Source of the DNA: a virus
Length of the DNA: 30,339 nt
IMG/VR virus record: IMGVR_UViG_3300045988_111924
Span: 1 to 30,339 of that record
Direction: 5' to 3' (one strand)
Shown here piece by piece: positions 4,066-30,339 of the stretch (its first letter is position 1; every line of letters starts with the position of its first letter). A program made the translations under genes and the position numbers. The notes below the pieces were generated by a model, which was not told the origin of the DNA, did not search any database, and saw only the letters and a list, made by a program, of their open reading frames with translations.

Positions 4066-4635
4066 TTATAAAATTTTAAATAATAATTGTTTGTGAGTTT
4101 TTGATCTTCCAGCTATTACATTATCAATAGCTTTCGGATTAAATCCATCTAGTTTTAATTCGTTTCTCGTTTTATACATTTTAATTAATTTTCCGTCTAA
4201 AGAATAACAACCAATGTTATAGTCTTTATGCCAATTAGAGCCAACTCTTGATTTAGAGATTTGAGCTTTAGATACTTCTGTATGATGTCTGCCATAAAAA
4301 GGATTTTTCTCTCCAGAGTGATTATGACCTTGTCTTTTTCCTCCTTTTAATCCTCCAGGTTCTTGATTCATACATAACGGATCTGTTTTTCATAAATCTC
4401 CAACTCAATAAGCTTCCCTTTCAGCATTTTCTTCTTTAGAAGCATTCAGTTCAATTATTGTTTTACGGTATGTACCAACTGTTCCGTATTTATCGAAAAA
4501 AGATTTACAAAACCGACCACTGCCTCTATAAGCCTTATCATTTTCTGGCTTATAATTAACTGTTCGTTTTCCTATATAATATTTGCCAATATGTTTTGGA
4601 TGTAGGAAGTCGATTTTATAAATATAATGATACAT
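4066..4635 (-). CDS. GIY-YIG homing endonuclease (189 aa) inserted between the scaffold and capsid genes
   Basis: Track ORFs 4405..4635 and 4066..4371 share a frame and are joined by TGA at 4405-4407 and 4390-4392. N-terminus reads YIYKI...YYIGK (GIY-YIG). Read as EREAY-W-VGDL-W-K, the first TGA sits at the Trp position of the E-x-x-x-W-I motif known from I-TevI-type enzymes. A NUMOD3-like GEKNPFYGRHHT follows downstream. Confidence 0.8.
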
Positions 4636-5840: not shown

Positions 5841-5919
5841 TTTTTATTAATATATAAGCTATTTTAAAAATGTAATATTGTTACAATCTTTTATTTTTAT
5901 ATATTTATATACTATCAAA

Positions 5920-5967
5920 TGTCAAGTTTTTACTCAAATTTGTATCTAAGATAAATAAATTTTGACA
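5920..5967. promoter_or_regulatory. Conserved quasi-palindromic intergenic element, copy A
   Basis: Sequence is tgtcaagtttttactcaaatttgtatctaagataaataaattttgaca. Arms are TGTCAAGTTTTTAC and TAAATTTTGACA. It lies between the tape-measure stop (6035) and the protease start (5840). A left-arm-like half copy (tgtcagaaattttactcac) is at 6015-6033. Confidence 0.7.
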
Positions 5968-5970
5968 TAG

Positions 5971-6014
5971 CACTACTATATAAGCACTGATAATCAGCAA
6001 CTTACATAGTAGTG
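5971..6014 (-). other. Compound stem-loop just downstream of the tape-measure stop
   Basis: Perfect 9-bp inverted repeat, cactactat (5971-5979) and atagtagtg (6006-6014). It encloses an inner ctga-taa-tcag hairpin. There is no clear U-tract. Confidence 0.4.
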
Positions 6015-6034
6015 TGTCAGAAATTTTACTCACT

Positions 6035-8803
6035 TTAGAAACTTGCATTTGATTCTGTAACTGCAACTTTAGTTTGAGCATTAGTAATATCACTCTCAAC
6101 TACATAGCATTTAACAGGTTCATTTAATAAATCAGTCTCTTTATCACCAAGTAAGTTTCGAGTATATTCTACAGGAGCAGTGTTTAAAGCAGCAGGTGCT
6201 GCAACAGATGCAGAAGCAGAAGATGCAGATGCTCCACTAGTTTCATCTACCTCTCAAATCTTTTTAACATTTGCAATACCTGCAACTACTGCGGCTGCAG
6301 CTGCAGCAATACCTAAAGCAGGACCTACAATAGGAATTCCTGCCATAGCAGAGTATGCGCTATTTGCTGCTGAATAAGTGTCAATTAAAGCTTGTGCAGT
6401 AGCAAATCCTTTTCCAACTTTACTCTCTTCTCCCCAAATACTTGCCATACTTCCTGCAATGCTTGAAGCTACAGATAAAGTACCTTGTAAAGCTTGCTGC
6501 CTTGCTTTTTGAAGATTTTGATAAGCCTGAGTATTTGCCTGTTCATTAGCTAATTGAGCATCTGATAAGGCCATATTATTCTCAGTAAGAGTTCTTTGAA
6601 TTTCCTCTTTTTGTTCAGCAGTTAATTGTTCATTCATTAATTGCTGACTTAATAAGGCATTCTCTTGCTCTATTCTACCTTGAGTTAATGAGAGTAAGTT
6701 GTTATTGTATTCAATTTGAGCATTGTATTGATTCTCTAAGTCCTCTCTACTCTGATATGTAAATTTATAACCAGTCCCTTCATAATCTCCAGCTAATCCA
6801 AATGCTTTCGATATACCTTGAGTATAAGTAGTCTGAAAGGTCTGCTCTCTTGGCTCTCTCAAATTACTTGTAGAAGATAAATCTCTAATCCTTTTTAATT
6901 CAGACTGTAGATCATTCCAAGCTTTATCTGCATCTGCTTTACGCTTAGCTTCTTCATCAGCTCTAGCTTTATCTCTAATCTTTTTAAGTTCTTCCTGATG
7001 CCAAGCTTCTACCTCTTCAATTCCCCTATTATACTTAATAGCTAATGCTAATAGTCTAATATATTCATCTTCAAGTTCATCTACTGGGTCTTTATCCTCT
7101 AATCTCTTTTGAAGCCATTCATCAAATTCATTTATTACCTTCTTAGCTTCAGTAGTGTTCTTTGTAATAGTTGGAATATTAAAGAACCCACCATACTTTT
7201 TATTAGTATCTGCTACATCCTCAAATAGCTTTTTAAGCCTTTTCTCAATGTCTTTATTTAAATCATCCAACTGTTTATAAGTATTCTCTTTATTTTGCTT
7301 TGTATACTCATAAATTGTATTTGAATAATCTTTTCAGAACATTGCTGTAGCTTTAAAAGCCTGCCAAGCAGATACCTCTCCAAAACTTGTATCAGAAATT
7401 TGATTCTCCAGTTCAGTACGTTTGTTTAAATACTCCTCATAAAGCTTAATTGCAGCCTGTTCAATAGCCTGAGCTTTTGCTCTTGCAGTTAATGCTTCTA
7501 CATAATTACCAGTATTATTTACAAACGCATCTTCTGCAGTCTTTACATCAGTGATATTTAAACCAGTCTCTTTAATCTTATCTGAATATTGCTCTATAAA
7601 CTTACGCTTAGCATCTGCAGAATCTCCAACCCTTTCGTAAGCTATTTGGAGCTCTCTAAAGATAGCTATAGATTTAGAAGCAATCTGATTAGTAGTATCT
7701 GTAATAGACTTTCTAAATTCAGCAGCCTCCTTTTCAGCTGATTTTATTGAGGATATATACTCTATTATCTTATTAATAGCTACTCCAATAGCTGTAGCTA
7801 ATGCAATTCATACAGTTACATTACCAATAGTTTTAAGTGCAGTTTTAACTTTACCTACTCCAGAAGCAGCTTGTTCTGAAGCTTCAGCCATTGCTTTCTG
7901 AGCCTCTGCTCCTTTTCGCAAAGTTGGAATGCCTTTTTCTACATTTTCCTTTAATTCAGCAAGATCTACACCTAAACGTTTAGCAGCTTTCTGCATTCTC
8001 TCTGCTAGAGTTCCAGTCTCTTTTGCTGTTTCCTTTAAAAATTCAGCAACTGTAGTAAATGTAGGTTTTACTTCTTTAAAAGACTTTTTTGCAGTTTCTC
8101 CTAATTTACCTATAATTGGAATCGTATTAGATACACTCTTATTAGAAGCAGATATTTCAGCAGGAGTTCCAAGCATACCCTGAACCATTCCACCTCTGAG
8201 ATTAATATTGGTGCCTTCTAAATCCTTGACTACTTTAGAGATATTACCTAATTCAGTTCCAACATTACCAACAGATGTGCCAATGCCATTAAGCTTAGAT
8301 GTATCAATCTGATTAAGGTTTTTGGCAGCATTATTCAATCCTGTATTAAATGGGGAAATAAAATCAGTTAATTTCTTAAACCAATTACCTAAAGTGGGTA
8401 ATTCTTCTAATAAATCTTTTATACCTCCCACACCTTGAACTAAAGCAATAGTAGATTGTAACTTAACCATTACTTTATTTAAATCTTCTGATTCTTTCCC
8501 AAATAAAGTAATAGCAGCAGTTGCAGCACCATATCCACTAGCTAAGCCAGTGGATATTTTAGCTACACTTTCAAATCTTTGAGCAGTAGTTCTCGAAGAT
8601 CTTGCTATCTGCTCATTAATTTTATTGAACTCTGATTGTCTTTTACCTAGTAATGCAAGAGTTTCATTATATTCCTTAGTACCAATCTCTAAATCATTCA
8701 GAGAACTAGATAATGCGTCAATATCTTTCTTTAAAGAGTTTATTGACTTATTACTTGACTTAGTATCAATACTAATTACTTTTTTAATTTCTGTTTGTGC
8801 CAT
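6035..8803 (-). CDS. Tape-measure-like protein (922 aa)
   Basis: Track ORFs 7808..8803 and 6254..7270 and the unlisted stretches 7271..7807 and 6035..6253 form one frame. The only interruptions are TGA at 7808, 7334 and 6254. I checked every codon in 7337..7807 and found no TAA or TAG. Long coiled-coil sequence with Ala/Gly-rich hydrophobic segments, typical of tape-measure proteins. TAA stop at 6035. Confidence 0.7.
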
Positions 8804-11800
8804 TAGATTGTAATATTTTTAACAGTATCTTCTGTTAGTGTTAAATTCTCTGTATATTTAATTGTTCCTGTTGGTCCGTCAGATACTCTAAATAAAAATT
8901 GAACTCCATTTTGAGCATATATTCTATAACTTCCATCATCTCTCATATAAGTGACATTTAAGAAATTATCATTTTCAGTTAGAATCTGATTAACGCCAGA
9001 AGGAATACCTCCAGTAGAAGTTTGAAGCTTTCCTGTAATAAGAATAGCTTTATTTGGGTCTGGAGTTTGAGTAAACATACATTGAGGGCCATTTATACTT
9101 CCTTGTTTATAAAGACTAAAGTAGAAACTTCTTTGGTCATATGTAGTATTCTCATTATAAGTAACTGTTAATTCTGTTTCTCCAGGTTGCCCAGATTCAG
9201 GTGTAATGCTTACAATTTCATTTGGACTATATCATCCTAATTCTCAAGGAATATTAGAAGTAACTGTAATCTTTTTAGTCCCAGCTTTATAATCTACAAC
9301 TGGATCTGAATCATCAAATGATATATATTCACCTAGATTTTGAACTCCAGCTAAATAACTATTAATATCTTGAACTTTAATAAATTCGCATCTAACTGTA
9401 GAATCTGAATTAATATCATAAGCATCAATCTTATTAAGTACCCAGTAAGAATCTTCAAAATAATAGAACTGTCTAAGTAAATCATACTTAACATCTAAAT
9501 CATCCAATCTTACAAAGCAGGTAACTTTTTTAGTATTTACATCAAATTGATCATTATAAAATTCACTCCAGAATCTACTATATAAAGTAGATTGTTCTAA
9601 ATAACTAACTTTATCAATGTATATTTCTCTTGGAACCCCAAAATCTCAAGATGAAGATATAAAATTACTAGAAATAGTGTATCTTATAAATTGTGGTAAT
9701 ATGTTTCTTCTAATAGCTATTTTTTGTCCTGCAGAATTATTTTCACTATTAGTATAGATATAACAAGGTTCTCCATCATTAAGAACTGACATTTCTGTAA
9801 CATCATCAGTAATCCAATAATAAATAGGATTACCATTTATATCTTTCATATTAACATCATCATTATAAAATAATAAAGTACTTTTTATCTCTTCAAGACT
9901 TTGTTCATTATTATCTAATGTATAAAAACAAGTTTTTGCAAATATATCATTTCCAGGAACATCCCACCATTCTGTAGTCTTACCTTGGTCTATAAAATTA
10001 GCTCCATATAAATCCTGATCATTAGTCTTTACTTCTGTAGAAGTTCTATTAAATAAACTATATGTAATATTATCATTCATAAATGCGGGTACATAAGTAT
10101 TTCCAGAATTAAAGAAATTTCTAAAATACTTATCTGCATCTCTTGCTGATACTACATTTTGAAATATATTTCCAGAATATAAATCAGTATTATCACTATT
10201 AAAATTATATCCAGTGTTTAATCTTTGCTGACCATAATCTATATCATATTGTCTATCATATTTCTTGGCATAATATGTTTCTGGAGTTTCTAATGACATA
10301 GTGTATCACTTCTTATCAAATAATATTGGATTTACATTGAAGTCTTTAGAATAATCAATTCTTTTACTCCAATCAGAGATTATATTCTTAAAGAAATTAT
10401 TTCTAGTATGTATTCTAATTGTTTTACTATCAATATCTTTTGTAAAATATAATCCAAATAGTTTTGCATAACTTAATAAGTAATCAGCAGGAGATTGTTC
10501 TGTCTTTAATAATTTCTGCTTAGTAATTAAAGCATCAGAAGTAACTGCTGAAGGCCAAGACGCTTTTAGCGTATATTGATCTTCATCATATAAAAATTCT
10601 GACCATCCAGCAACTCTATTTGCTGTGACATTATTAGGATGCATATTATCTGACTGTCATACAGCATCTTGGTTATATAAATTTTCAGTTCTTCTTGCAA
10701 TTTGTATATTCACTAAAATCTTATTAACTTTAGGCATATCTTTTACAGTAAATCTGAAAGTATTAGTATTATTATCACTTTTGAAATAATACCTATTTCC
10801 ACTATCTTTTACAAAATGCCCATAAATAGCTTCTACAGGTGCATCAGTTAATGGATAATAATTAAATCAAGTGCCAGGCCCAGATTGAACTTGAGTGTTT
10901 ATCTTATTTGTAAAGTTATATAAAGGAGAGTATGCTATAGGTCTACTAGGAGATGAAGTATCTTCAGCATCATATATCAATATCTGTGCTGTTACTGATG
11001 TTCTGTAAGGATCATTCCTATAATCTGTATTTCCAGCTCTTCCGTTCCTTACATAAGATAAATATAAATCATTACCTGCTGAAACATTTGCATTATAAAA
11101 TAGCTGAAAATCAACATTAATATTAACAAGAGTATTAGCAGGAGTTGCAGATAAATCAATTACTTGTCCTTCACCAGGTACTATTACATCACTCCCTGTA
11201 ACACTAAATCTTCCTCAGTTTACTGAAGTAGTTGTTCCTCCAGGTTTTAATCCACACCAAAACAAATCATTATATTTAGTAAGTTTAGCATTCTCTGTAA
11301 TATTATCTGATTCTTCATCTTCAGTAGATCCTAATAAAGGTAATGCGACAAACGCTTTATTTCAATATGGATTTGAATAATTAAAGAAACTATCATCAAA
11401 TATCACATCATATCCAGAATTCTCTTTTCTACATATAGTTTCTATTAACTTACTTAATTTTAATGCTGGCCTTTGCATATAACTTCTAAGATCTCTCATC
11501 TCCCATTCTGTATATGCTCTATTTAATTTAGCTAATCCATATCCATTATAAGGTGTGTATGTAGTTCCTGAATCGGTCTTACTAGTAGGAAATAAATTAT
11601 CTCCATTAGTATTTATTAAACAAGTTTCATTATCAAAGTTTTCATATAAACCGTTATATGCAGGAATAAATGTTAAAAAATCATAAATTTGACTTCCGTC
11701 ATTTACTTTACTCCAATTAAAACAAGTATTTACAAAATCTTTATTAATGTGGAAATTCATTTCAGTATCGGTAGGAAGTACATTACCATCCTCATCAGTT

Positions 11801-12243
11801 ACAAAGTATTGTAAATCAGCTAGAGTTCTAATAGTGCCATCTTCTTTATATTTAAGTCCATAAAAGAAATCTCCCAATCCTCCATATAAAGTAATATTAT
11901 AAGTAATAACTGCTTGCTTTATAGAGATGCTATTTAACTGCATATATCCTGATTCAACTAAATATCCATTATTATAGATTCCAAAGTCAACTCTTTTTGA
12001 AGGATCAAAATATATGCCAGAGAAATTACCTTCTTTTATATGGAGAAATCTATCTAACTTATAAATCTCTCCAAAAATCTTATTATTGTTTTTGTCTCCT
12101 GGAATGCTTATAGTCTTACTGAATGAATTTTTTACTATTGTTGGATTCTGAAAATCTTCTACAGTATAAGTCATTGGTAATGATATGCCTTCAGAACAAT
12201 GTACTTCTTTTCCTGCAATAAATAATTTAATATTCTTTCTCAT
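8803..12243 (-). CDS. Large tail tip or baseplate protein (1146 aa)
   Basis: Five track ORFs (11362..12243, 10306..10644, 9646..10299, 9244..9507, 8803..9078) all share the same frame. The gaps contain only TGA, at 11362, 11215, 10867, 10657, 10306, 9646, 9244 and 9232. I checked codon by codon and found no TAA or TAG. ATG at 12241-12243. The TAA stop overlaps the next ATG. Confidence 0.8.
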
Positions 12244-14917: not shown

Positions 14918-14959
14918 TTTTGTTAAAATATATTAATTTATAGGTGAGTATCTAAACAC

Positions 14960-14984
14960 AAATAGGGAGATTTACTCCCTATTT
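14960..14984. terminator. Stem-loop adjacent to element copy B
   Basis: Sequence is aaatagggag-attta-ctccctattt, a 10-bp stem with a 5-nt loop. The A and T tracts lie inside the stem, so it could act in either direction. Confidence 0.5.
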
Positions 14985-14987
14985 AAG

Positions 14988-15037
14988 TGTCAAGTTTTTT
15001 ACTCACTTTTAGTAGTTAAAATAAATAAAAACTGACA
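14988..15037. promoter_or_regulatory. Conserved quasi-palindromic intergenic element, copy B
   Basis: Sequence is tgtcaagttttttactcacttttagtagttaaaataaataaaaactgaca. It lies between the terminase block and the tail block. Confidence 0.7.
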
Positions 15038-15182
15038 TTTTAATGTTTTCGTTTTCATTCTTCAATCTGTCTATTTTCTTCATTAGCTTTATCTATAACA
15101 TAGCATATAATGTTAAGAAACTCTTTAATCTGCATATCATATATCTGATGCCAATTAAATTTAGTAACCTCACTTACCTTAT

Positions 15183-17842: not shown

Positions 17843-18175
17843 TTAATTAATAAGTTTGTATATAACATCTATCAGCTTAGTAGATGCATCTTTTAATAAT
17901 ATCATAATATCTTTAATTAAGTCGTTATAGTATGCAACTAGCAATACTAATAATAAGTTCGGCAAACTAAAACCAAATCAAAATAAACTAATTATACCAA
18001 TTCAGGTGCCTAAACACCAACTACACACTCAAGGCTTAATCATTCAATCTTCATTAAATGGTAATCCTCTATATAAGTAATTTCATAATCTTTTCCTTAT
18101 AGGAATATCAATTCCTGACATAGTATATATAACTATAACAGTATTAATTATTAGAATACTTCCAAATAAACCCAT
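17843..18175 (-). CDS. Small membrane protein, DUF1360-like (110 aa)
   Basis: Invisible in the standard-code track. ATG at 18173-18175, TAA at 17843. Five in-frame TGA at 18083, 18044, 18029, 18002 and 17978. Reads ...KP-W-VCSWCLGT-W-IGIISLF-W-FGF. The CxWCxGxW motif and hydrophobic segments resemble DUF1360. An alternative start is the ATG at 18119-18121. Confidence 0.55.
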
Positions 18176-18710
18176 AACAATGTTTCCAATTTACTTTGTT
18201 CCTACAAAACTTGGAAATGGTTCCATTATCATATCCCAAGCATCTTTTTATTTCTCTTATAGAATCTCATACTTTAATTAGGTTGCCATCTAAGTCATAC
18301 TGAGCTACTTTTTTAGCAAGTGGGCCATTTGTTAATTTTTCAACAACTTTCTTAGTATGAGTGCCATAATTTAAATTATACTTAGCAGTACACCACTCCA
18401 GATTTTCAATTCTATTGTTTAACTTATTTTCGTCAATATGGTTTACTTGAGGTAAATTATTTGGATTTGGTATAAACGTTTCAGCTACTAATCTATGCAC
18501 TCTAAAATTATATGTTTTGGAATGCAGTGAAATCACAATATAACTATATTCTCTAGTAATATATTGTTTTATAATCTTACTTGAGTAATTATATTCTCTG
18601 CCATCCTTATATTTGACTACCCTTTGCATAGTTCTAACTCTACCAAGAGTACTTACTTCAAAAGGAAAATCCTTGTATTGTTTCCATTCTTCTAACATAT
18701 CCTTCCACAT
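18144..18710 (-). CDS. HNH-family homing endonuclease (188 aa)
   Basis: Track ORF 18267..18710 has a NUMOD4-like WKDIxxF...VSxxGRV start and an HNH_3-like VNHIDENKLNNRIENLEW segment. It continues through TGA at 18267 into ...KV-W-DSIREIKRCLGYDNGTISKFCRNKVNWKHCYGFIWKYSNN. That is the usual C-terminal DNA-binding tail of these enzymes. TAA at 18144. Confidence 0.8.
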
Positions 18711-18949
18711 ATTTTATTTCTAATATTACTTATGCACCTTGCTATGGTAGTATGACTAATTCCCAATATTTTTCCCACTTCTCTATAACTGTGATATTCA
18801 GCATATAATATGATTACTGTCTTATCTGCCTTATTAAGCTCAAGTCATTTTGGATATATACTTAATAGTCTATCATCCATATTTGTAAACATACTATAGT
18901 CTATTTCATACTCAGTAAGTAAATCGTCAATATTAATCTTCCGTTTCAT
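18692..18949 (-). CDS. Sigma-70 region-4-like HTH protein (85 aa), second half of a two-ORF ECF-like sigma
   Basis: ATG at 18947-18949. One TGA at 18845 (IYPK-W-LELN). LNKADKTVIILYAEYHSYREVGKILGISHTTIARCISNIRNKI matches the region 4 pattern. Stop is TAG at 18692. Confidence 0.55.
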
Positions 18950-19915: not shown

Positions 19916-20095
19916 TTAGAAAGAAATACCTAAACCAAAAAACCAAGAGGATTTCTTTACCTTTTCATTGGTTTCAATCTCCTTTAATGCCTCATTACAT
20001 AATTCTTGAGCTTTCTCAATAGAACCATCTTCAGTAATCTTACCATCTAATATATCAAGAAAATATTCAAGTGCTTCAATTTGTTTAGTTTTCAT
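19916..20095 (-). CDS. Hypothetical small protein (59 aa), first gene of the minus-strand early block
   Basis: ATG at 20093-20095, TAA at 19916. It lies about 46 nt downstream of the minus-strand promoter motif. It falls just under the apparent length cut-off of the track. Confidence 0.4.
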   Translation of the reverse strand: MKTKQIEALEYFLDILDGKITEDGSIEKAQELCNEALKEIETNEKVKKSSWFFGLGISF

Positions 20096-20393
20096 AATTT
20101 ATAAAGTTTAATTGTTAATATTATGTCTTACTTTCATAGTACAAATATACAACAAAAAATTCCAATTTCCAAATTTTTTAGGTATTATTTTTATTATTTT
20201 CAAAAAAATATTACTATTTGTATTTTTTAGTGCTAAAAATTTTGTAGATTAAAAAATTATTCTTATATTTGTAGTGTGATAATAAAAATACAATTTTAAA
20301 TAAAAACAATGCTTAAATTATTTGGATTTTAAATAAAAATGTTGTATATTTGTACTATCAAAATAGATTATTATAATTAAAATTTTAAAGACT
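20096..20393. promoter_or_regulatory. Divergent early control region with three Bacteroides-type promoter motifs
   Basis: Plus strand: TTTG (20241-20244), 19 nt, TATATTTG (20264-20271). Plus strand: TTTG (20321-20324), 20 nt, TATATTTG (20345-20352). Minus strand: TTTG (complement of 20170-20173), 20 nt, TATATTTG (complement of 20142-20149). The 18-mer gttgtatatttgtactat occurs at 20341-20358 and inverted at 20136-20153. The same sequences can also be read as TTGnnn-N16/17-TATATT, a sigma70-like pattern. Confidence 0.55.
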
Positions 20394-20549
20394 ATGAAAA
20401 ATTCGATTAAAAACAATGGAACAATTATTATTGAAGATAATACAATTAAGAGCACTATGGAGAATTCAATTCCTTGTTCTGATGAACAATTTGCTAACTT
20501 ATTAGCTAACTCTCCTACAATTGCAGCTTATTTTAGTAAAAATAAGTAA
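20394..20549 (+). CDS. Hypothetical small protein (51 aa)
   Basis: ATG at 20394, TAA at 20547-20549. Followed by an intrinsic terminator. Confidence 0.4.
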   Translation: MKNSIKNNGTIIIEDNTIKSTMENSIPCSDEQFANLLANSPTIAAYFSKNK

Positions 20550-20563
20550 TTCTACTACTTCTA

Positions 20564-20589
20564 GGCAGGTGAAAGTCCTGCCACTTTTT
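20564..20589 (+). terminator. Rho-independent terminator
   Basis: Sequence is ggcagg-tgaaagt-cctgcc, followed by acttttt. Confidence 0.6.
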
Positions 20590-20599
20590 AATATTAAGG

Positions 20600-20648
20600 T
20601 GTCAACTTTTTACTCACCTGATGTGTATAGATAAAATAAAAATAGACA
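20600..20648. promoter_or_regulatory. Conserved quasi-palindromic intergenic element, copy C
   Basis: Sequence is tgtcaactttttactcacctgatgtgtatagataaaataaaaatagaca. It ends 26 nt upstream of the helicase ATG. Confidence 0.7.
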
Positions 20649-20673
20649 ATTAATAACCAAAATTATTACAACT

Positions 20674-22392
20674 ATGAAAACATATTTAAATGAAATTATT
20701 AATGAGTTGCCAACTAACTGTTTATTTGATAAAGGAAAAGTTGGATGTGGAGGAACTTCAATGGCAATTGAATGCAATAAGCCTTATGTTATTTGTGTTC
20801 CATTTACTAGCTTAGTTGAAAATAAACTTCAACAATATCCAAATGAAAGACGTACTGAGAAGATATTTGGAGTTTATGCTGGTGTTACTATTAAAGAGAT
20901 TAAAGATTATGTAGATAGTGTTAAATGCCCTAAAATCATTGTTACCTATGATTCTCTTTATAAAGTTATTTCTGCAATTAATCCTAAAGAGTTTAGCATT
21001 TTAATTGATGAATATCATATTCTCTTTAATCAGTATAGCTTTAGAAGCTCTGCTATTCAATCAGTGCTTAAATATTATAAATTATTTGGTAATTTTACAT
21101 TTATGACCGCAACACCTTTAGAGGAAGAGTTTGTATTAGATGAATTAAAAGATTTAGAATTAGTAAAGCAGGAATGGGATGATGTTATAGATGTAAAAGT
21201 GCAAACTGTTAAATGTGATAATGTAGAAGCTTCTACTATTAAACTTATAAATGGATTTTTAAACGGACAGGTTGAAGGTAACGCCTACATATTCGTTAAT
21301 TCAGTAGACTTTATAAAGAACCTTATTAAGAAAGCCAAATTAACATCTAATAATACCAGAGTTATATATTCCAAAAACAATAAAACTAAACTGTCAATTC
21401 CTAATTCAACAGTCTTAGATGAACCTAAGAAAATAAACTTATTAACTTCAACTGTATTTGAAGGTTCAGATATTTATGATGAAAATGGAAGGATAATAAT
21501 TATATCTGATCCAAGTAAAGCTAATACATTACTTGATATATCAACTTCTATACAGCAGATTGCTGGTAGAATTAGAAATAGTAAATATATTAATTGGATA
21601 ACTCACATTTATTCTACAACAAGATATGCTGATATATCTTATGAAGAATTTAAAAAGCTTAATATCCAGAATATTGAAGAAACTAAAATTGCTGTAGAAG
21701 CATACAATAAACTTCCAGAGATAGCTAAAAAGAAACTTAGAGAATTTACTTCTGATGCATACATTAAATTAAATTGGGATGATGTATTTGAATTTGACCC
21801 TAATATGGCTAAAATTGATTTATTTAATTTTAAAGTATCTAGAGGACTGTATTCTGCTAGAGCTAATCTTTCTAAGGAATATATTAATAAAGGATTCAAT
21901 AAAGTGGTAGAACAATACGATAATTCTATAAAAATAGATCTAAATACTAAAACAAAAGCATTTAAAGATATAATTAAAGAAGTAAGAGGGGAATATGAAA
22001 CTTTATATAAATTAAACACACCAAAATTAGATGATGCTCTTATTAAATACCCTTGGTTAATGGATGCTATTACTAAACTTGGATTCAATAAAATGGCCAC
22101 TCTAAAATACTGTATTACTAAAATAAAAGATGAACTTATTAAAACTTCAGATAAATCTGTAGATAATAAAGTAGCAAATAAACTTAATAAAGATATAACT
22201 TTAGGTATGTGGTATTCTAATACTGATATTAAAAAGATACTACAAAAAGCTTATGATTTAGTTAATAAAACTAATGCTAAAGCTACTGATATTACAAAAT
22301 ATTATGAAGTTAAGGTAACTAAAAAATCAGTGAATGGAAACAGATCTTATGGATATACTATTATAGGTAAAAAGTATGTCTTTAAAAATTAG
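20674..22392 (+). CDS. SF2 (DExH-type) helicase-like replication protein (572 aa)
   Basis: Intact ORF. Motif I-like GKVGCGGTS, motif II LIDEYH, motif III MTATP, motif V-like TSTVFEGSD and motif VI-like QQIAGRIRN. All 5 Trp are TGG and there is no TGA. Stop is TAG. Confidence 0.65.
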   Translation: MKTYLNEIINELPTNCLFDKGKVGCGGTSMAIECNKPYVICVPFTSLVENKLQQYPNERRTEKIFGVYAGVTIKEIKDYVDSVKCPKIIVTYDSLYKVISAINPKEFSILIDEYHILFNQYSFRSSAIQSVLKYYKLFGNFTFMTATPLEEEFVLDELKDLELVKQEWDDVIDVKVQTVKCDNVEASTIKLINGFLNGQVEGNAYIFVNSVDFIKNLIKKAKLTSNNTRVIYSKNNKTKLSIPNSTVLDEPKKINLLTSTVFEGSDIYDENGRIIIISDPSKANTLLDISTSIQQIAGRIRNSKYINWITHIYSTTRYADISYEEFKKLNIQNIEETKIAVEAYNKLPEIAKKKLREFTSDAYIKLNWDDVFEFDPNMAKIDLFNFKVSRGLYSARANLSKEYINKGFNKVVEQYDNSIKIDLNTKTKAFKDIIKEVRGEYETLYKLNTPKLDDALIKYPWLMDAITKLGFNKMATLKYCITKIKDELIKTSDKSVDNKVANKLNKDITLGMWYSNTDIKKILQKAYDLVNKTNAKATDITKYYEVKVTKKSVNGNRSYGYTIIGKKYVFKN

Positions 22393-22394
22393 TA

Positions 22395-22444
22395 TGTCTA
22401 TTTTTATTTTTATCTATATACATTAGTTGAGTAAAAAATAGACA
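22395..22444. promoter_or_regulatory. Conserved quasi-palindromic intergenic element, copy D (inverted relative to A, B, C and E)
   Basis: Sequence is tgtctatttttatttttatctatatacattagttgagtaaaaaatagaca. Its reverse complement matches copy C at 44 of 49 positions plus one 1-nt indel. It begins 3 nt after the helicase stop. Confidence 0.7.
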
Positions 22445-22464
22445 TTTATTAAAATATTTTAATT

Positions 22465-22626
22465 ATGGAAAATGATATTAAAGAAACAATTAAACAAACA
22501 GAAGAGTATATTAAAGAGTTAGATAGATGAATTCTCGAATGTAAAGAGGCTACTAAAAGATTTGGTGATATTATAGACAAAGTATTAAAAAATAAAGATT
22601 ATATGTTTATTTCTAAATTTGATTAA
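22465..22626 (+). CDS. Hypothetical small protein (53 aa)
   Basis: ATG at 22465, TAA at 22624. One in-frame TGA at 22528 (ELDR-W-ILECK). Under the standard code it would be only 21 aa. Confidence 0.4.
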
Positions 22627-22628
22627 TT

Positions 22629-22769
22629 ATGGATGATCATTTATTTAAAAAGCTTGAAGAACTAGAATACAGAATAGTTCAACTAGAAAACCAGAATAGA
22701 GGTTTAGTTTGGGAAGAAGTAGAAGAAATACCAAAACCAGAAATTACTAATGCAACATATACTGATTAA
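22629..22769 (+). CDS. Hypothetical small protein (46 aa)
   Basis: ATG at 22629, 2 nt after the previous stop. TAA at 22767. Coiled-coil-like sequence. Confidence 0.35.
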   Translation: MDDHLFKKLEELEYRIVQLENQNRGLVWEEVEEIPKPEITNATYTD

Positions 22770-22770
22770 T

Positions 22771-22911
22771 ATGAAATACCAAACCTATAAAGTATGTATA
22801 AATGGAGTGCATTATGTATATGTAATACCAGAAAATAGTAAGTTTTTAGTAGACTTACAAACAGGAGATTTAATACCTAAAGATGAGAAATTATTTGAGA
22901 TAATGGAATAA
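22771..22911 (+). CDS. Hypothetical small protein (46 aa)
   Basis: ATG at 22771, 1 nt after the previous stop. TAA at 22909. Followed by a terminator. Confidence 0.35.
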   Translation: MKYQTYKVCINGVHYVYVIPENSKFLVDLQTGDLIPKDEKLFEIME

Positions 22912-22915
22912 ACAA

Positions 22916-22940
22916 AAAGGAGGGTTATTTGCCCTCCTTT
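22916..22940. terminator. Bidirectional intrinsic terminator between convergent gene blocks
   Basis: Sequence is aaaggaggg-ttatttg-ccctccttt, with an A-run on the left and ttctttttt on the right. It lies between the plus-strand stop at 22911 and the minus-strand stop at 22950. Confidence 0.75.
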
Positions 22941-22949
22941 TCTTTTTTA

Positions 22950-23540
22950 TTAAACATATCTTCACTTGAATCCTTTTACTTTATATCCTTCTCTAATTGC
23001 TTTAGAAATAGAATTTTTATGAACTCCAACATCTAAAGAAGTACTAACAGCACAATCATATTCTTTAATAAGAACATCATCTTTATATGCACCTACTTTT
23101 TTGGCTCTAGGATTATTGCCAAAAGAATTATTTAAATAGCTCAAATCTCTTCCTTTCTGGCTATCACTCATCTTTTTCCTAGTTTCTTCTGATAGATGTC
23201 TTCCAATACTTTTAGCTCTTATCTTATCTTTTCTTTCTTGAGTAAATATAATTCCACAAGTACCGTCTCCTCCATCAGTAGCATTATACCCATATTTTGG
23301 ATTTCTAGTATTATACTTATAAATCAGAATCTTTTCTAAAGTCTTAGCACAAGCTTCTGGAAGATTATCTCTAATTATAATATGCTCAAAATTATCTCAA
23401 CCATATTTTTTAATTGCTTTATAAAATGGCTGCTTTTTGTAACCTGTACCATTAGCTCATCTTATTTCAGGTTTCTTACAGGTAATACCAAAATATAATT
23501 TATTATTAGTTTTATTCTTATGATAGTAAAGAGAATACAT
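22950..23540 (-). CDS. GIY-YIG homing endonuclease (196 aa), second copy of this class
   Basis: Track ORF 22962..23171 is only the C-terminal fragment. The frame is open from the ATG at 23538-23540 through TGA at 23457, 23397 and 22962 to TAA at 22950. Reads YYHKNKTNNKLYFGIT...EIR-W-ANGTGYKKQPFYKAIKKYG-W-DNFEH...GFK-W-RYV. The KYGWDNF and RW positions are conserved Trp in this family. Confidence 0.8.
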
Positions 23541-23986
23541 TATACTAATGTGAAATATTGGTTCTTTAAATTATTAGGATTATATGAAATATGCCATCAA
23601 GAAGGCACTCCTTTTTTAGGTTTTTCTCTTATTATTTGTGAGAATTTAATAGTTGGAATTAATTGCTCAATAAACTTATCAAATTCTTCCATTCTTTTAT
23701 TTGCAGGTTTTAAATCAGCAGCAAATCCTCATAAATGATCCGAGGTTTTAGATCCACCAACTGCTTTATTTAAAAGATTACTTCTATAACCTGATGTTAC
23801 TATTATAGCAGGATTACCGAGATTGTTGTCATTGCAATATTTTGCCCACTTTTCTCTCATAGTATCCAATAAATTATCAACTAATATATTCAGGTTTGAA
23901 ATTGTTTTTTCATCTGGAGTATTATCAATGCCTTTTTGTTCAGCAGTTGTAGATCTTGTTAATTCGCTAATAGTAAAATATTTCAT
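23540..23986 (-). CDS. Endolysin, Peptidase_M15-type (148 aa)
   Basis: Track ORF 23729..23986 continues through TGA at 23729 and 23597 to TAA at 23540. The SxHxxGxAxD zinc-peptidase motif reads S-D-H-L-(TGA)-G-F-A-A-D. The start overlaps the holin stop. Confidence 0.75.
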
Positions 23987-27446: not shown

Positions 27447-27522
27447 ATTTTACATAGTTTTACATTACTTTTACATATCTTTTTCTTAAAATATAAACCA
27501 ATTTACTAATGTATTAAAATAA

Positions 27523-27548
27523 TTAAAGGAGACCTAAGCCTCCTTTAA
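27523..27548 (-). terminator. Stem-loop adjacent to element copy E
   Basis: Sequence is ttaaaggag-acctaagc-ctcctttaa, a 9-bp stem. On the minus strand it is followed by aattattttaat. Confidence 0.5.
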
Positions 27549-27597
27549 TGTCAAGTTTTTACTCACTCAAAGTACTAAGAAAAAATAAAAACTGACA
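27549..27597. promoter_or_regulatory. Conserved quasi-palindromic intergenic element, copy E
   Basis: Sequence is tgtcaagtttttactcactcaaagtactaagaaaaaataaaaactgaca. It begins directly after the stop of the LRR gene at 27599. Confidence 0.7.
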
Positions 27598-27598
27598 A

Positions 27599-28576
27599 TT
27601 AGTTTGAACTTGCTAAAGTTCAGTTTTTAGATGCAGCTAATGATTTCTGTTCCTCAGTAAGTGCATTATAAACTGCAGAATTAAATGTAATAGTTTGTGT
27701 AGAAATTCCAGTTAAATCTGACACTGCTTCTAGAACATTATCAACTGAACTAGACGTTAATGAAGGAAGATTAGCTAAAGTAAATGACTTACTTGTAACT
27801 ACACCTCCGAATTCTGTTAATTCAGTTAGCCAGTATGAACTTCCAAATGTATAGCCAAAAGCTGTGGAGTCTAATGACTTATCAGGAGATATAGTTATTT
27901 TGCCTAAAGATTTTAATTTTTTACAATATGTAAACATCTGATTTGTTTGACCAGTACAGTTTGGAGCGTAAATATCTGGAATGGTTTCAATTGATTCACA
28001 ATAATTGAAAATGCCAGAAAGAGAAGTTGCTATAGAAAAATCTATATTTGGTAAAGTAAGCAAACTACTACAGTTACTAAAAGTTTGAAAATATTGAGAT
28101 AATTTTAAATTTGCATCTATTTCAACTAACTTAGTGCAGTTATAGAAAAGTTGGGAACCTTGATTACTGGTGCTATTTAATAAGGTTATTTTATGTATAC
28201 CATTAGCGGTGGAAATGGTATAAAACATAGTATTCATATTTTTGCCTTGGCAATCAAATGTGAATTCATCGTTTTGAGACCATTCACATCCGTAGAAAAA
28301 ATGATCATAAGAATATTTATTTAGTATAAAATAATCCTCCAATTTTAATTCCCCACCATCCCTAAATTTATGCATATTAGAAAATCCTAATGATAATGGA
28401 ATAATACTTAAATCAATTTTACCTCCACCACCTCCAGATATTTCTCCAATCTTTTCTGCATAACTTCTAAAGGTATCTGAATCTGATACAGCAACACCTT
28501 TAGCTACAATAGCATCTTTAATGGCACTCTTAGTACCTTCAAGATACGTTAATTTATCAGAAATTGTATTTGCCAT
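27599..28576 (-). CDS. BspA/DUF285-like leucine-rich-repeat tail protein (325 aa), receptor-binding candidate
   Basis: Track ORF 27620..28576 continues through TGA at 27620 to TAA at 27599 (...EEQKSLAASKN-W-TLASSN). Repeats of the type FxxCxxLxxIP...MFxxCxxL. The C-terminus is paralogous to 29498..30028. Confidence 0.65.
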
Positions 28577-29497: not shown

Positions 29498-30339
29498 TTA
29501 TGCAACTCGATTTATGCTCCAATTCTTTGAAGCGATTAATGATTTCTGTTCATCTGTTAATTTATCATATGCAGTAGATTTGAATGATATACTTGTATTA
29601 GAACTTACTGCTGTGCCAATAGATTCTGCTATAGTTTGTAATGAATCTGTAGATAAATTTGGAGATTGTGCAAAATAAAGAATTCCTCCTTTAGTTAAAC
29701 TCTCTCCTAATCCATTTAAAGCTCCTACAGTTACTAATTCTGGACAATTTGCAGCAAAACTAGTACAATCTGTAACAAGATGGCAATCTATTTCTGGTGT
29801 AGCTGTTAATCTACTACAAGTACTAAACATATAGCTTATATCTGTAATTCCAGTAAAGGTAAAATTACTTGGAATAGTTGTTAGATATAATGCTCTATGA
29901 AACATATGATTACAATCTCCTTTAAATGGAATATTAATCGTTATATTATCTATATTAGTAGCTCCATCATCTGTCTCTGCAAATGCCCATTTTGGATCTA
30001 CTAATACAAGATTTTGAAAATTATTCATTACAGAGAAATCATTATTATCTATTTTTACTCCAATAAATAAATAATTTGCACTTACTTCTTTAGTAGTTGT
30101 AGGTATTTTAACATTAGATAAAGTAGCACTATGTATTGTTTGACCCCAAAATTGAGATTCACTAGACCATCTTCCATATGCTTCATTAAGATTAGTAATC
30201 TCCTGGTTATTTAGATCAAAATGAGATGTTTCAAAAAACCCTCCTTTTCTACTTAAATCTCCACTATTTAACTTTACATCTGCATATGTTTGAGCAGAAC
30301 CTATAATACTACAAAGAGGTACACCATCTATATTAAGGG
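29498..30339 (-). CDS. 3' (C-terminal) part of the wrap-around BspA/DUF285-like LRR tail protein. Its N-terminus is at 1..365.
   Basis: The frame of ORF 29498..30028 stays open upstream to the window end, with no stop in 30029..30339. The repeat motif MFHRALYLTTIP...ISYMFSTCSRLTATP is DUF285-like. Ends ...EQKSLIASKNWSINRVA, with the Trp encoded by TGG at 29519-29521. Confidence 0.7.
   Translation of the reverse strand, partial: LNIDGVPLCSIIGSAQTYADVKLNSGDLSRKGGFFETSHFDLNNQEITNLNEAYGRWSSESQFWGQTIHSATLSNVKIPTTTKEVSANYLFIGVKIDNNDFSVMNNFQNLVLVDPKWAFAETDDGATNIDNITINIPFKGDCNHMFHRALYLTTIPSNFTFTGITDISYMFSTCSRLTATPEIDCHLVTDCTSFAANCPELVTVGALNGLGESLTKGGILYFAQSPNLSTDSLQTIAESIGTAVSSNTSISFKSTAYDKLTDEQKSLIASKNWSINRVA
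30255..30339. repeat. Terminal direct repeat copy 2 (identical to 1..85)
   Basis: Read directly. Exact 85/85 identity with the window start. Confidence 0.9.

Follow-up and report, generated by a model that had tools for sequence, protein, structure and literature searches.

Three predicted Bacteroidota-type promoters in the divergent control region of a TGA-recoded human-gut phage genome

Results

Genome layout and the divergent control region

The IMG/VR virus record IMGVR_UViG_3300045988_111924 was analyzed over its whole length of 30,339 nucleotides (nt), hereafter the window, with the focus on a 298-bp gap that separates two divergently oriented gene blocks and carries three predicted promoters. 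Because the terminal 85 bases of the window are an exact repeat of the first 85, the window represents a complete phage genome with a unit of 30,254 bp, and a minus-strand gene spans the genome junction in frame, from about 371 down to 29498. The GC content of the whole genome is 30%. Under genetic code 4, minus-strand genes run from 20095 down via the junction to 22950, over about 27 kb, while a 2.5-kb plus-strand module (20394 to 22911) contains an open reading frame (ORF) of 51 amino acids (aa), a 572-aa SF2 helicase and three small ORFs. The plus module and the minus block diverge at the 298-bp gap and converge at a bidirectional terminator (Table 1). Proteins identical to those of the window are found in human-gut assemblies, and more than 50 related contigs are present in IMG/VR.

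The 298-bp gap is the largest and most AT-rich gap of the genome. An earlier note on this DNA, made from the sequence alone, had placed three TTTG-N19/20-TATATTTG sites in it, two facing the plus strand and one facing the minus strand, and all three lie exactly where it had put them; the start codons of the flanking genes are likewise as claimed (CAT at 20093-20095 and ATG at 20394). The note's description of this gap as the only large intergenic region is overstated, since other gaps under code 4 measure 265 nt (14918-15182), 194 nt (5841-6034), 152 nt (27447-27598) and 124 nt (20550-20673). According to the rule that the G of the -7 box occupies position -5 (PMC6847099), the predicted starts are A20137 for the leftward promoter, near 20276 for the distal rightward promoter and A20357 for the proximal one. 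The predicted leaders, 42 nt to the ATG at 20095 and 37 nt to the ATG at 20394, are A-rich and lack a Shine-Dalgarno (SD) sequence.

The leftward and proximal rightward promoters share an inverted repeat, TGTTGTATATTTGTACTAT. It is exact and found at the place given earlier, with a length of 19 nt instead of 18. The arms extend imperfectly to 45 nt with 78% complementarity (20110-20154/20340-20384), and therefore cover both promoters roughly from -17 to +28. Taking all the evidence described below together, the gap is probably the main transcription control region of this phage, with three strong promoters for the Bacteroidota-type primary holoenzyme (sigma-ABfr). From the sequence we infer initiation at these sites, the strength of the promoters and their early timing.

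Table 1. Positions of the control region, its predicted promoters and the associated features in the window
Feature	Position	Strand	Description
Terminal repeat	1-85 and 30255-30339		exact, 85 bp
First minus-strand gene	19916-20095	-	59 aa, no TGA, no family match
Divergent control region	20096-20393		298 bp, 14% GC, between the first minus- and first plus-strand genes
Leftward promoter (predicted)	20137-20173	-	-33 TTTG 20173-20170, spacer 20 nt, -7 TATATTTG 20149-20142
Distal rightward promoter (predicted)	20241-20276	+	-33 TTTG 20241-20244, spacer 19 nt, -7 TATATTTG 20264-20271
Proximal rightward promoter P3 (predicted)	20321-20357	+	-33 TTTG 20321-20324, spacer 20 nt, -7 TATATTTG 20345-20352
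Inverted repeat, left arm	20136-20154	-	TGTTGTATATTTGTACTAT, exact, 19 nt, promoter positions about -17 to +2
Inverted repeat, right arm	20340-20358	+	TGTTGTATATTTGTACTAT, exact, 19 nt
First plus-strand gene	20394-20549	+	51 aa, slot variable among relatives
Terminator-like hairpin	20564-20589	+	GGCAGGTGAAAGTCCTGCC, then ACTTTTT, between rightward promoters and helicase
Element E between terminator and helicase start	20600-20652	-	full copy
SF2 helicase gene	20674-22392	+	572 aa, P-loop, DEYH box and QxxGRxxR, main gene of plus module, TGA-free
Bidirectional terminator	22915-22941	both	convergence of plus module and minus block
Element E, all full copies	5920-5967, 14989-15041, 20600-20652, 22395-22444, 27549-27598
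Element E, half copy	6014-6034

Clustering of the promoter motif in the gap

The earlier note had proposed to count the motif over the genome against shuffled controls, and this count gave a divided answer. The overall number is not significant: TTTG-N18-22-TAnnTTTG has 4 matches against 1.6 expected, and 8 of 100 shuffles reach 4. With TAHHTTTG as the -7 box, there are 4 matches against 1.0 expected (2 of 200 shuffles), and taken by itself the -7 box shows no enrichment (42 matches, 46 expected). The clustering in the gap, in turn, goes beyond what local shuffling produces. Three of the four genomic matches fall into these 298 bp, about 1% of the genome, and among 20,000 dinucleotide shuffles of the gap none contained three matches and 10 contained two. 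Non-overlapping inverted repeats of at least 18 nt were absent from 3,000 shuffles, the longest being 17 nt. One could still regard the matches as chance products of very AT-rich DNA, as the non-significant genome-wide count and the unenriched -7 box would suggest; however, local shuffles never yield the three sites and these are kept across 19 relatives with variable spacers, and we give this explanation almost no credence.

Conservation of the control region in related phages

Twenty-two related loci were found in IMG/VR via the helicase (70-100% aa identity), and the control region is complete in 19 of them. Each of these 19 has the strict motif at two sites that face the plus strand and at one that faces the minus strand. 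In the window plus relatives (778 kb), there are 142 strict matches, and 127 of these are control-region promoters, which represent 31 distinct sequences; the other 15 trace to six coding-sequence strings. Of the 31 variants, 24 have a 20-nt spacer, 5 a 19-nt spacer and 2 a 21-nt spacer, and the -7 box in the relatives is TATATTTG or TATCTTTG. Both boxes and the spacing of 19-21 nt are kept, while the sequences of the spacers and leaders as well as the intervening and flanking genes vary. Because the number, orientation and boxes of the sites are retained in 19 of 19 regions while spacers and genes change, the comparison supports the conclusion that selection maintains the three sites as genuine promoter elements of the Bacteroidota -33/-7 type.

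The family consensus, AAAaaATTTGGAaaTT-N~10-aTGTwkTATmTTTGTAsTAT, is longer than the textbook motif. Its core occurs in two flavours, ...TGTTGTATATTTGTACTAT and ...TGTATTATCTTTGTAGTA, which are interchangeable at the three promoter positions, and the inverted repeat of the window is, as judged from these cores, the first flavour used on both strands. The genes next to the promoters are much less constant. The first plus-strand slot of L001-L022 (the related loci) holds an ORF of 46, 51, 63-66, 161 or 181 aa, or none, and only some of the relatives have the first leftward gene. The promoter cassettes are also reshuffled between relatives. Together with the variable slot, this suggests that recombination takes place at the conserved promoter cores and that the genes have accessory functions of the kind typical for early genes.

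Among more distant loci, a relative that has 41% GC and a 49% identical helicase carries AATTTGGATTTTT-N-TATATTTG ahead of the helicase gene, and TATTATCTTTGTACTAT lies upstream of the helicase homologue on a Bacteroidaceae chromosome that is a metagenome-assembled genome (MAG). One relative, L020/L066 (IMGVR_UViG_3300045988_175865), sits on a contig of 148,631 bp, about five times the size of the phage genome, which may be a concatemer, a chimera or DNA of the host.

Match to Bacteroidota promoters

The consensus of the Bacteroidota primary sigma factor is -33 TTTG/-7 TANNTTTG, where T-12, A-11, T-8, T-7, T-6 and G-5 are nearly invariant and no G occurs at the two N positions, that is, TAHHTTTG (PMC6847099). 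It was confirmed by differential RNA sequencing in B. thetaiotaomicron, where the median leader is 32 nt (PMC7366714), and the sigma-ABfr promoter with -33 TTTG/-7 TAnnTTTG is credited to Bayley et al. 2000 in both PMC6847099 and PMC7366714. All three sites of the window comply with TAHHTTTG, a 19-21-nt AT-rich spacer, an intergenic place and the correct orientation.

As a calibration, the strict motif was counted in four other phages against the shuffle expectation, which included the comparison between Bacteroidota and Mollicutes phages that the earlier note had suggested. Bacteroides phage B40-8 is clearly enriched: 10 matches were counted where 1.3 were expected, none of 200 shuffles reached 10, and several of the matches lie in gaps that precede genes. 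The Mycoplasma phages MAV1 (1 against 1.3 expected) and phiMFV1 (2 against 1.4 expected) and Lactococcus phage sk1 (0 against 1.3 expected) are not.

Evidence on the host

Translation signals give an independent indication of the host. An SD-like sequence at the usual distance precedes only about 2 of the 38 genes, and A is enriched upstream of the starts, at -3 (25/38), -13 (26/38), -12 (21/38) and -11 (20/38); the lack of SD with A upstream of starts is the signature reported for Bacteroidota (PMC6847099, PMC7366714). The helicase has more than 1,000 homologues, and those on long bacterial contigs all belong to Bacteroidota. They include the Hymenobacter sp. J193 chromosome, where the homologue adjoins an integrase and a Hachiman-type defence locus, the Bacteroidaceae MAG chromosome mentioned above (L068, OY764215.1, 2264580-2272313), Cyclobacterium plantarum and C. 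lianum, and a 132-kb contig of a 'Bacteroidetes bacterium' MAG; a shorter contig of 24.8 kb comes from Algoriphagus (Bacteroidota). A helicase-profile scan of GTDB genomes returned 9 loci. The 1146-aa tail protein (8803-12243) has a sub-threshold match to the viral BACON family PF19190 at residues 986-1043 (E value of 0.004, 17 bits against a cutoff of 25). These translation signals, the long-contig homologues and the calibration with B40-8 bear independently on the Bacteroidota host proposed in the earlier note and point to it consistently, if indirectly; this host phylum is probable.

L068 deserves a separate remark. Its helicase homologue and neighbours contain in-frame TGA, have 27-30% GC and adjoin a recombinase-like gene, and L068 may be an integrated element, itself TGA-recoded, within a Bacteroidaceae genome.

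The sites of the window can also be read as sigma-70-type promoters (TTGnnn-N17-TATATT) of a Firmicutes or Mollicutes host, as had been pointed out before, and a sigma-70 scan indeed lists TTGGAA-17-TATATT at 20172-20144. With a code-4 Mollicutes host, TGA as tryptophan (Trp) would be the code of the host itself, and the 30% GC of the genome and the lack of a suppressor tRNA in the window or its relatives would agree with this. However, the T before TTG and the TG after TATATT/TATCTT, neither of which sigma-70 requires, are kept at 57 of 57 expected promoter positions in the 19 relatives, sigma-70-like matches in the 15-25 kb stretch are fewer than expected (56 against 73.5), and the strict motif is not enriched in the Mycoplasma phages or sk1. 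The genes without SD, the Bacteroidota pattern of A and the exclusively Bacteroidota homologues on long contigs also argue against such a host, and most published code-4 gut phages likewise have no detectable suppressor tRNA. In a relaxed sigma-70-style pattern, TG follows the hexamer in 29 of 64 cases in control regions and in 12 of 155 elsewhere, a supportive signal that is noisy in AT-rich DNA. We consider the sigma-70 reading highly improbable.

Recoding of TGA

Three ORFs of 922, 1146 and 726 aa exist only with TGA read as a sense codon. The assignment to Trp is indicated by a paralogue pair (SKN(TGA)T versus SKN(TGG)S), by the endolysin, which has S(TGA)WH where its family has WWH, and by the GIY-YIG endonuclease with TGA at typical Trp positions. 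TGA occurs in about half of the genes (for example, 23540-23986, 27599-28576 and 8803-12243), which contain 42 TGA versus 52 TGG codons, while no TGA occurs in the genes for the helicase, the capsid protein and the portal or in the first gene on either side of the control region. In a standard-code Bacteroidota host the recoding would be specific to the phage, as the earlier note had proposed; since the evidence favours such a host, this is plausible, and it fits the published recoded gut phages. In Borges et al. (bioRxiv 10.1101/2021.08.26.457843), a TGA suppressor tRNA was present in only 35% of the code-4 gut phages assigned to standard-code hosts.

The 57 related and homologue loci contain a single tRNA, with a CUA anticodon (amber suppressor), in the distant locus L067 (2259-2346), and because of this tRNA the wider family also seems to include TAG-recoded members. 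The helicase of L067 is 53% identical, and the locus is a 22-kb contig of a MAG labelled Bacillales.

The inverted repeat as a possible regulator site

The identical 19-nt repeats, with their 45-nt arms, could in addition be binding sites of a regulator that switches the leftward and proximal rightward promoters together. The identity, from -17 to +2, exceeds the minimal consensus, and the two leaders remain similar over their first 28 nt; the extended core ATGTTGTATATTTGTACTAT recurs at other promoter positions in relatives, and the leftward operon includes a gene for a small helix-turn-helix (HTH) protein (18692-18949). However, the 19-nt core itself is no palindrome, the second flavour TGTATTATCTTTGTAGTA substitutes freely at the same promoter positions, and no regulator is tied to the 19-nt site. 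A near-optimal promoter with recent duplication or recombination would account for the identity without a regulator, and a regulatory role of the repeat appears unlikely.

The 85-aa HTH protein scores above threshold for HTH_50 and below threshold for Sigma70_r4, and its gene overlaps the end of the 18933-19241 gene, which encodes a 102-aa protein with no assigned function. The two proteins form a weak candidate pair for a phage transcription factor. A phage sigma factor was considered and dropped, as the 102-aa and 85-aa proteins gave only sub-threshold Sigma70_r4 matches and nothing convincing in the PDB. A fused sigma factor at the same place in relatives was rejected as well, since the 164-aa ORFs there are HNH endonucleases.

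The direct repeat and the replication-origin proposal

The region had also been named a candidate replication origin. No other stretch of the genome is as AT-rich; the region also adjoins the only replication-type gene (the SF2 helicase) and contains a direct repeat of 13-14 nt, ttttaaataaaaa. Two copies do exist, although the second TTTTAAATAAAAA copy begins at 20327 and not at 20328. Direct repeats of at least 13 nt arise in 6% of the shuffles of this 14%-GC gap; the P value for the ttttaaataaaaa repeat is about 0.02-0.06, and since 2-6% of gap shuffles give such repeats, it lies within chance. Its copies coincide with the spacer of P3 and an A/T-rich stretch upstream of P3, that is, with parts of the promoter architecture, and neither is kept as an iteron in relatives. 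The change of GC skew coincides with the switch of the coding strand and returns at 23 kb; because it flips only over the 20-23 kb plus-strand module, the skew follows the coding strand. A better structural candidate for an origin is the inverted-repeat element that flanks the helicase on both sides (see below). We therefore do not retain the proposal, and regard an origin in the control region as very unlikely.

Proposed working of the region

In the arrangement that we propose, the host holoenzyme would start leftward at A20137 into the minus-strand genes, and the two tandem promoters would start rightward at about 20276 and at A20357. Rightward transcripts would pass the variable small gene and then a promoter-proximal terminator before they reach the SF2 helicase. 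The 19-nt inverted repeat would be the shared extended -7 box and start site of one promoter flavour, which the phage family would reuse at different positions. The hairpin before the helicase is present in all relatives examined, often about 25-35 nt after the predicted start, and in L016, L017 and L020 a hairpin of different sequence occupies the same place. Because it is kept there even with another sequence, we infer that a conserved promoter-proximal attenuator precedes the helicase.

The minus-facing site is the only host-type promoter for all the minus-strand genes, about 27 kb in all, including those for terminase and structural proteins. The leftward genes begin with small genes, followed by a nuclease-like protein, the HTH protein, terminase and structural genes. 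Because the leftward unit runs on into the latter, the label 'early block' used in the earlier note seems too narrow; 'early' is plausible only for the small, variable genes without TGA that come first. A more fitting description of the region is the single cluster of host-type promoters in the genome.

A second inverted-repeat element at the other operon boundaries

Five other gaps carry a conserved inverted repeat of about 50 nt, here called element E (TGTCwrTTTTTATTT-N~17-GAGTGAGTAAAAAnTTGACA), with the layout TGTC..TTTTTATTT..GAGTGAGTAAAAA..TTGACA. A hairpin directly follows four of the five full copies and is GC-rich at three. Two copies flank the helicase as an inverted pair with 84% complementarity. 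For each of the 19 distinct E variants one strand gives a better fold than the other, and the fold z-score is -5.3 for two copies; the better-folding strand coincides with the gene strand at four copies and is antisense at the one that precedes the helicase. The arms of E covary in distant helicase loci (TGTAAC/GTTACA, GCTAGA/TCTAGC, CCTATA/TATAGG and GTCCAT/ATGGAC). Four roles are conceivable for E: a hairpin formed in the RNA at terminators, a promoter recognized by a phage factor, a palindrome bound by a protein, or the origin used by the helicase. An Rfam scan of the window returned nothing relevant at gathering or E-value thresholds.

In one subclade, the copy of E downstream of the helicase is replaced by a predicted host-type promoter whose -7 box ends 4 nt before the ATG. 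Such a fourth predicted host-type promoter, at a position that a copy of E occupies in the window, is present in L006-L015, L020 and L022; it overlaps the end of the helicase gene, at about +1704 to +1746 from its start, and its -7 box ends 4 nt (L006-L015) or 2 nt (L020, L022) before the next ATG. This promoter is predicted to yield a leaderless mRNA.

The gap holds the only predicted host-type promoters of the genome, while the other operon boundaries and both flanks of the helicase carry E beside a terminator. It is conceivable, though we offer this only tentatively, that a phage which reads TGA as Trp without a tRNA of its own launches 27 kb of late-gene expression from the three promoters through a mechanism new to Bacteroidota phages. 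Such a mechanism could be cis-acting, RNA-mediated read-through of terminators, or could employ a phage-specific promoter or factor.

Other genes of the window and its relatives

The AlphaFold model of the helicase has a predicted local distance difference test score of 83, and its best PDB matches are the cores of DEAD-box proteins, Mfd, RecG and UvsW. Family searches of the window proteins identified the large terminase, portal, capsid protein, prohead protease, an M15-type endolysin and a tail fibre, as well as HNH and GIY-YIG homing endonucleases; an integrase was not found in the set of window proteins scanned against families. Three homing-endonuclease genes lie at 4066-4635, 18144-18710 and 22950-23540, two GIY-YIG-like and one HNH with NUMOD domains; of the two GIY-YIG-like genes, the family search confirmed only 22950-23540. 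In L002, L007, L017 and other relatives, a different HNH gene (163-164 aa) is inserted into the leftward operon.

Discussion

According to the above analysis, the 298-bp gap marks the likeliest launch point of transcription in this genome. Several results weigh against three Bacteroidota-type promoters with this role, in addition to the non-significant genome-wide count and the sigma-70-like match in the scan. L077, a TGA-recoded relative with a helicase of 55% identity, lacks the strict motif throughout 20.9 kb. Searches with DNA, terminase, capsid and helicase found no cultured phage close enough for a transfer of the host: the identity is below 30% for the terminase and at most 32% for the helicase, and the capsid protein has no match. 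The terminase scan of GTDB genomes gave no match. Some helicase homologues are labelled Bacillales, Intrasporangiaceae, Limnohabitans and Chlorobiales, on MAG-bin contigs of 1, 2.7, 22 and 45 kb. Neither in the window nor in 55 related loci did ARAGORN detect a tRNA, and a phage that reads TGA as Trp without a tRNA would, on its face, be more in line with a code-4 host than with a Bacteroidota host of the standard code. The rightward promoters, given the intervening terminator, may not drive the helicase efficiently. For completeness, the record of L077 also contains a faint BACON match.

The significance of the three promoters lies less in their mechanism, since host-type promoters at a divergent phage junction are ordinary and of a known kind, than in their practical value, which is the host assignment of a recoded gut phage lineage. 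On the level of sequence, they point to Bacteroidota as the host phylum of a common uncultured lineage of about 30 kb from the human gut that reads TGA as Trp, and this assignment supports the recoding as a property of the phage and not of the host. The 31 natural promoter variants with their long shared consensus are also candidate strong promoters for Bacteroides.

The lineage resembles the recoded gut phages of Borges et al., which include small-genome clades such as Garnet and Amethyst, in its size of about 30 kb, its human-gut origin and its predicted Bacteroidota host, and it resembles the code-4 phages described there in that TGA is recoded in about half of the genes, a share inside the range given there, without a detectable suppressor tRNA (about 65% of the code-4 genomes there). 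Borges et al. describe no promoters.

With respect to layout, small lytic siphophages such as sk1 also place back-to-back promoters at a strand switch, with small variable genes downstream and replication functions near; in sk1, the E and PM promoters lie around 26.4 kb beside a putative origin. No protein or DNA similarity between sk1 and the window was seen, and the sk1 promoters, unlike those predicted in the window, are of sigma-70 type (-35/-10) with many early promoters.

The closest counterparts in sequence are the sigma-ABfr promoters, with which the sites of the window share both boxes, the AT-rich spacer and the intergenic place, and the predicted leaders of 37-42 nt compare with the median of 32 nt. 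They differ in that the conserved sequence of the window family is longer than the minimal consensus, and in that the sites lie in a phage with predicted starts. Among phages, the promoters of Bacteroides phage Bf12P1 were predicted by the same -7/-33 rule, 14 in all, in early, middle and late modules (PMC13139388). As in Bf12P1 and B40-8, the host-type promoters of the window lie in intergenic gaps upstream of gene blocks. However, whereas those of B40-8 are spread along the genome and those of Bf12P1 are reported for all three modules, the predicted host-type promoters of the window are all concentrated in one 298-bp gap, and its other operon boundaries carry a different element.

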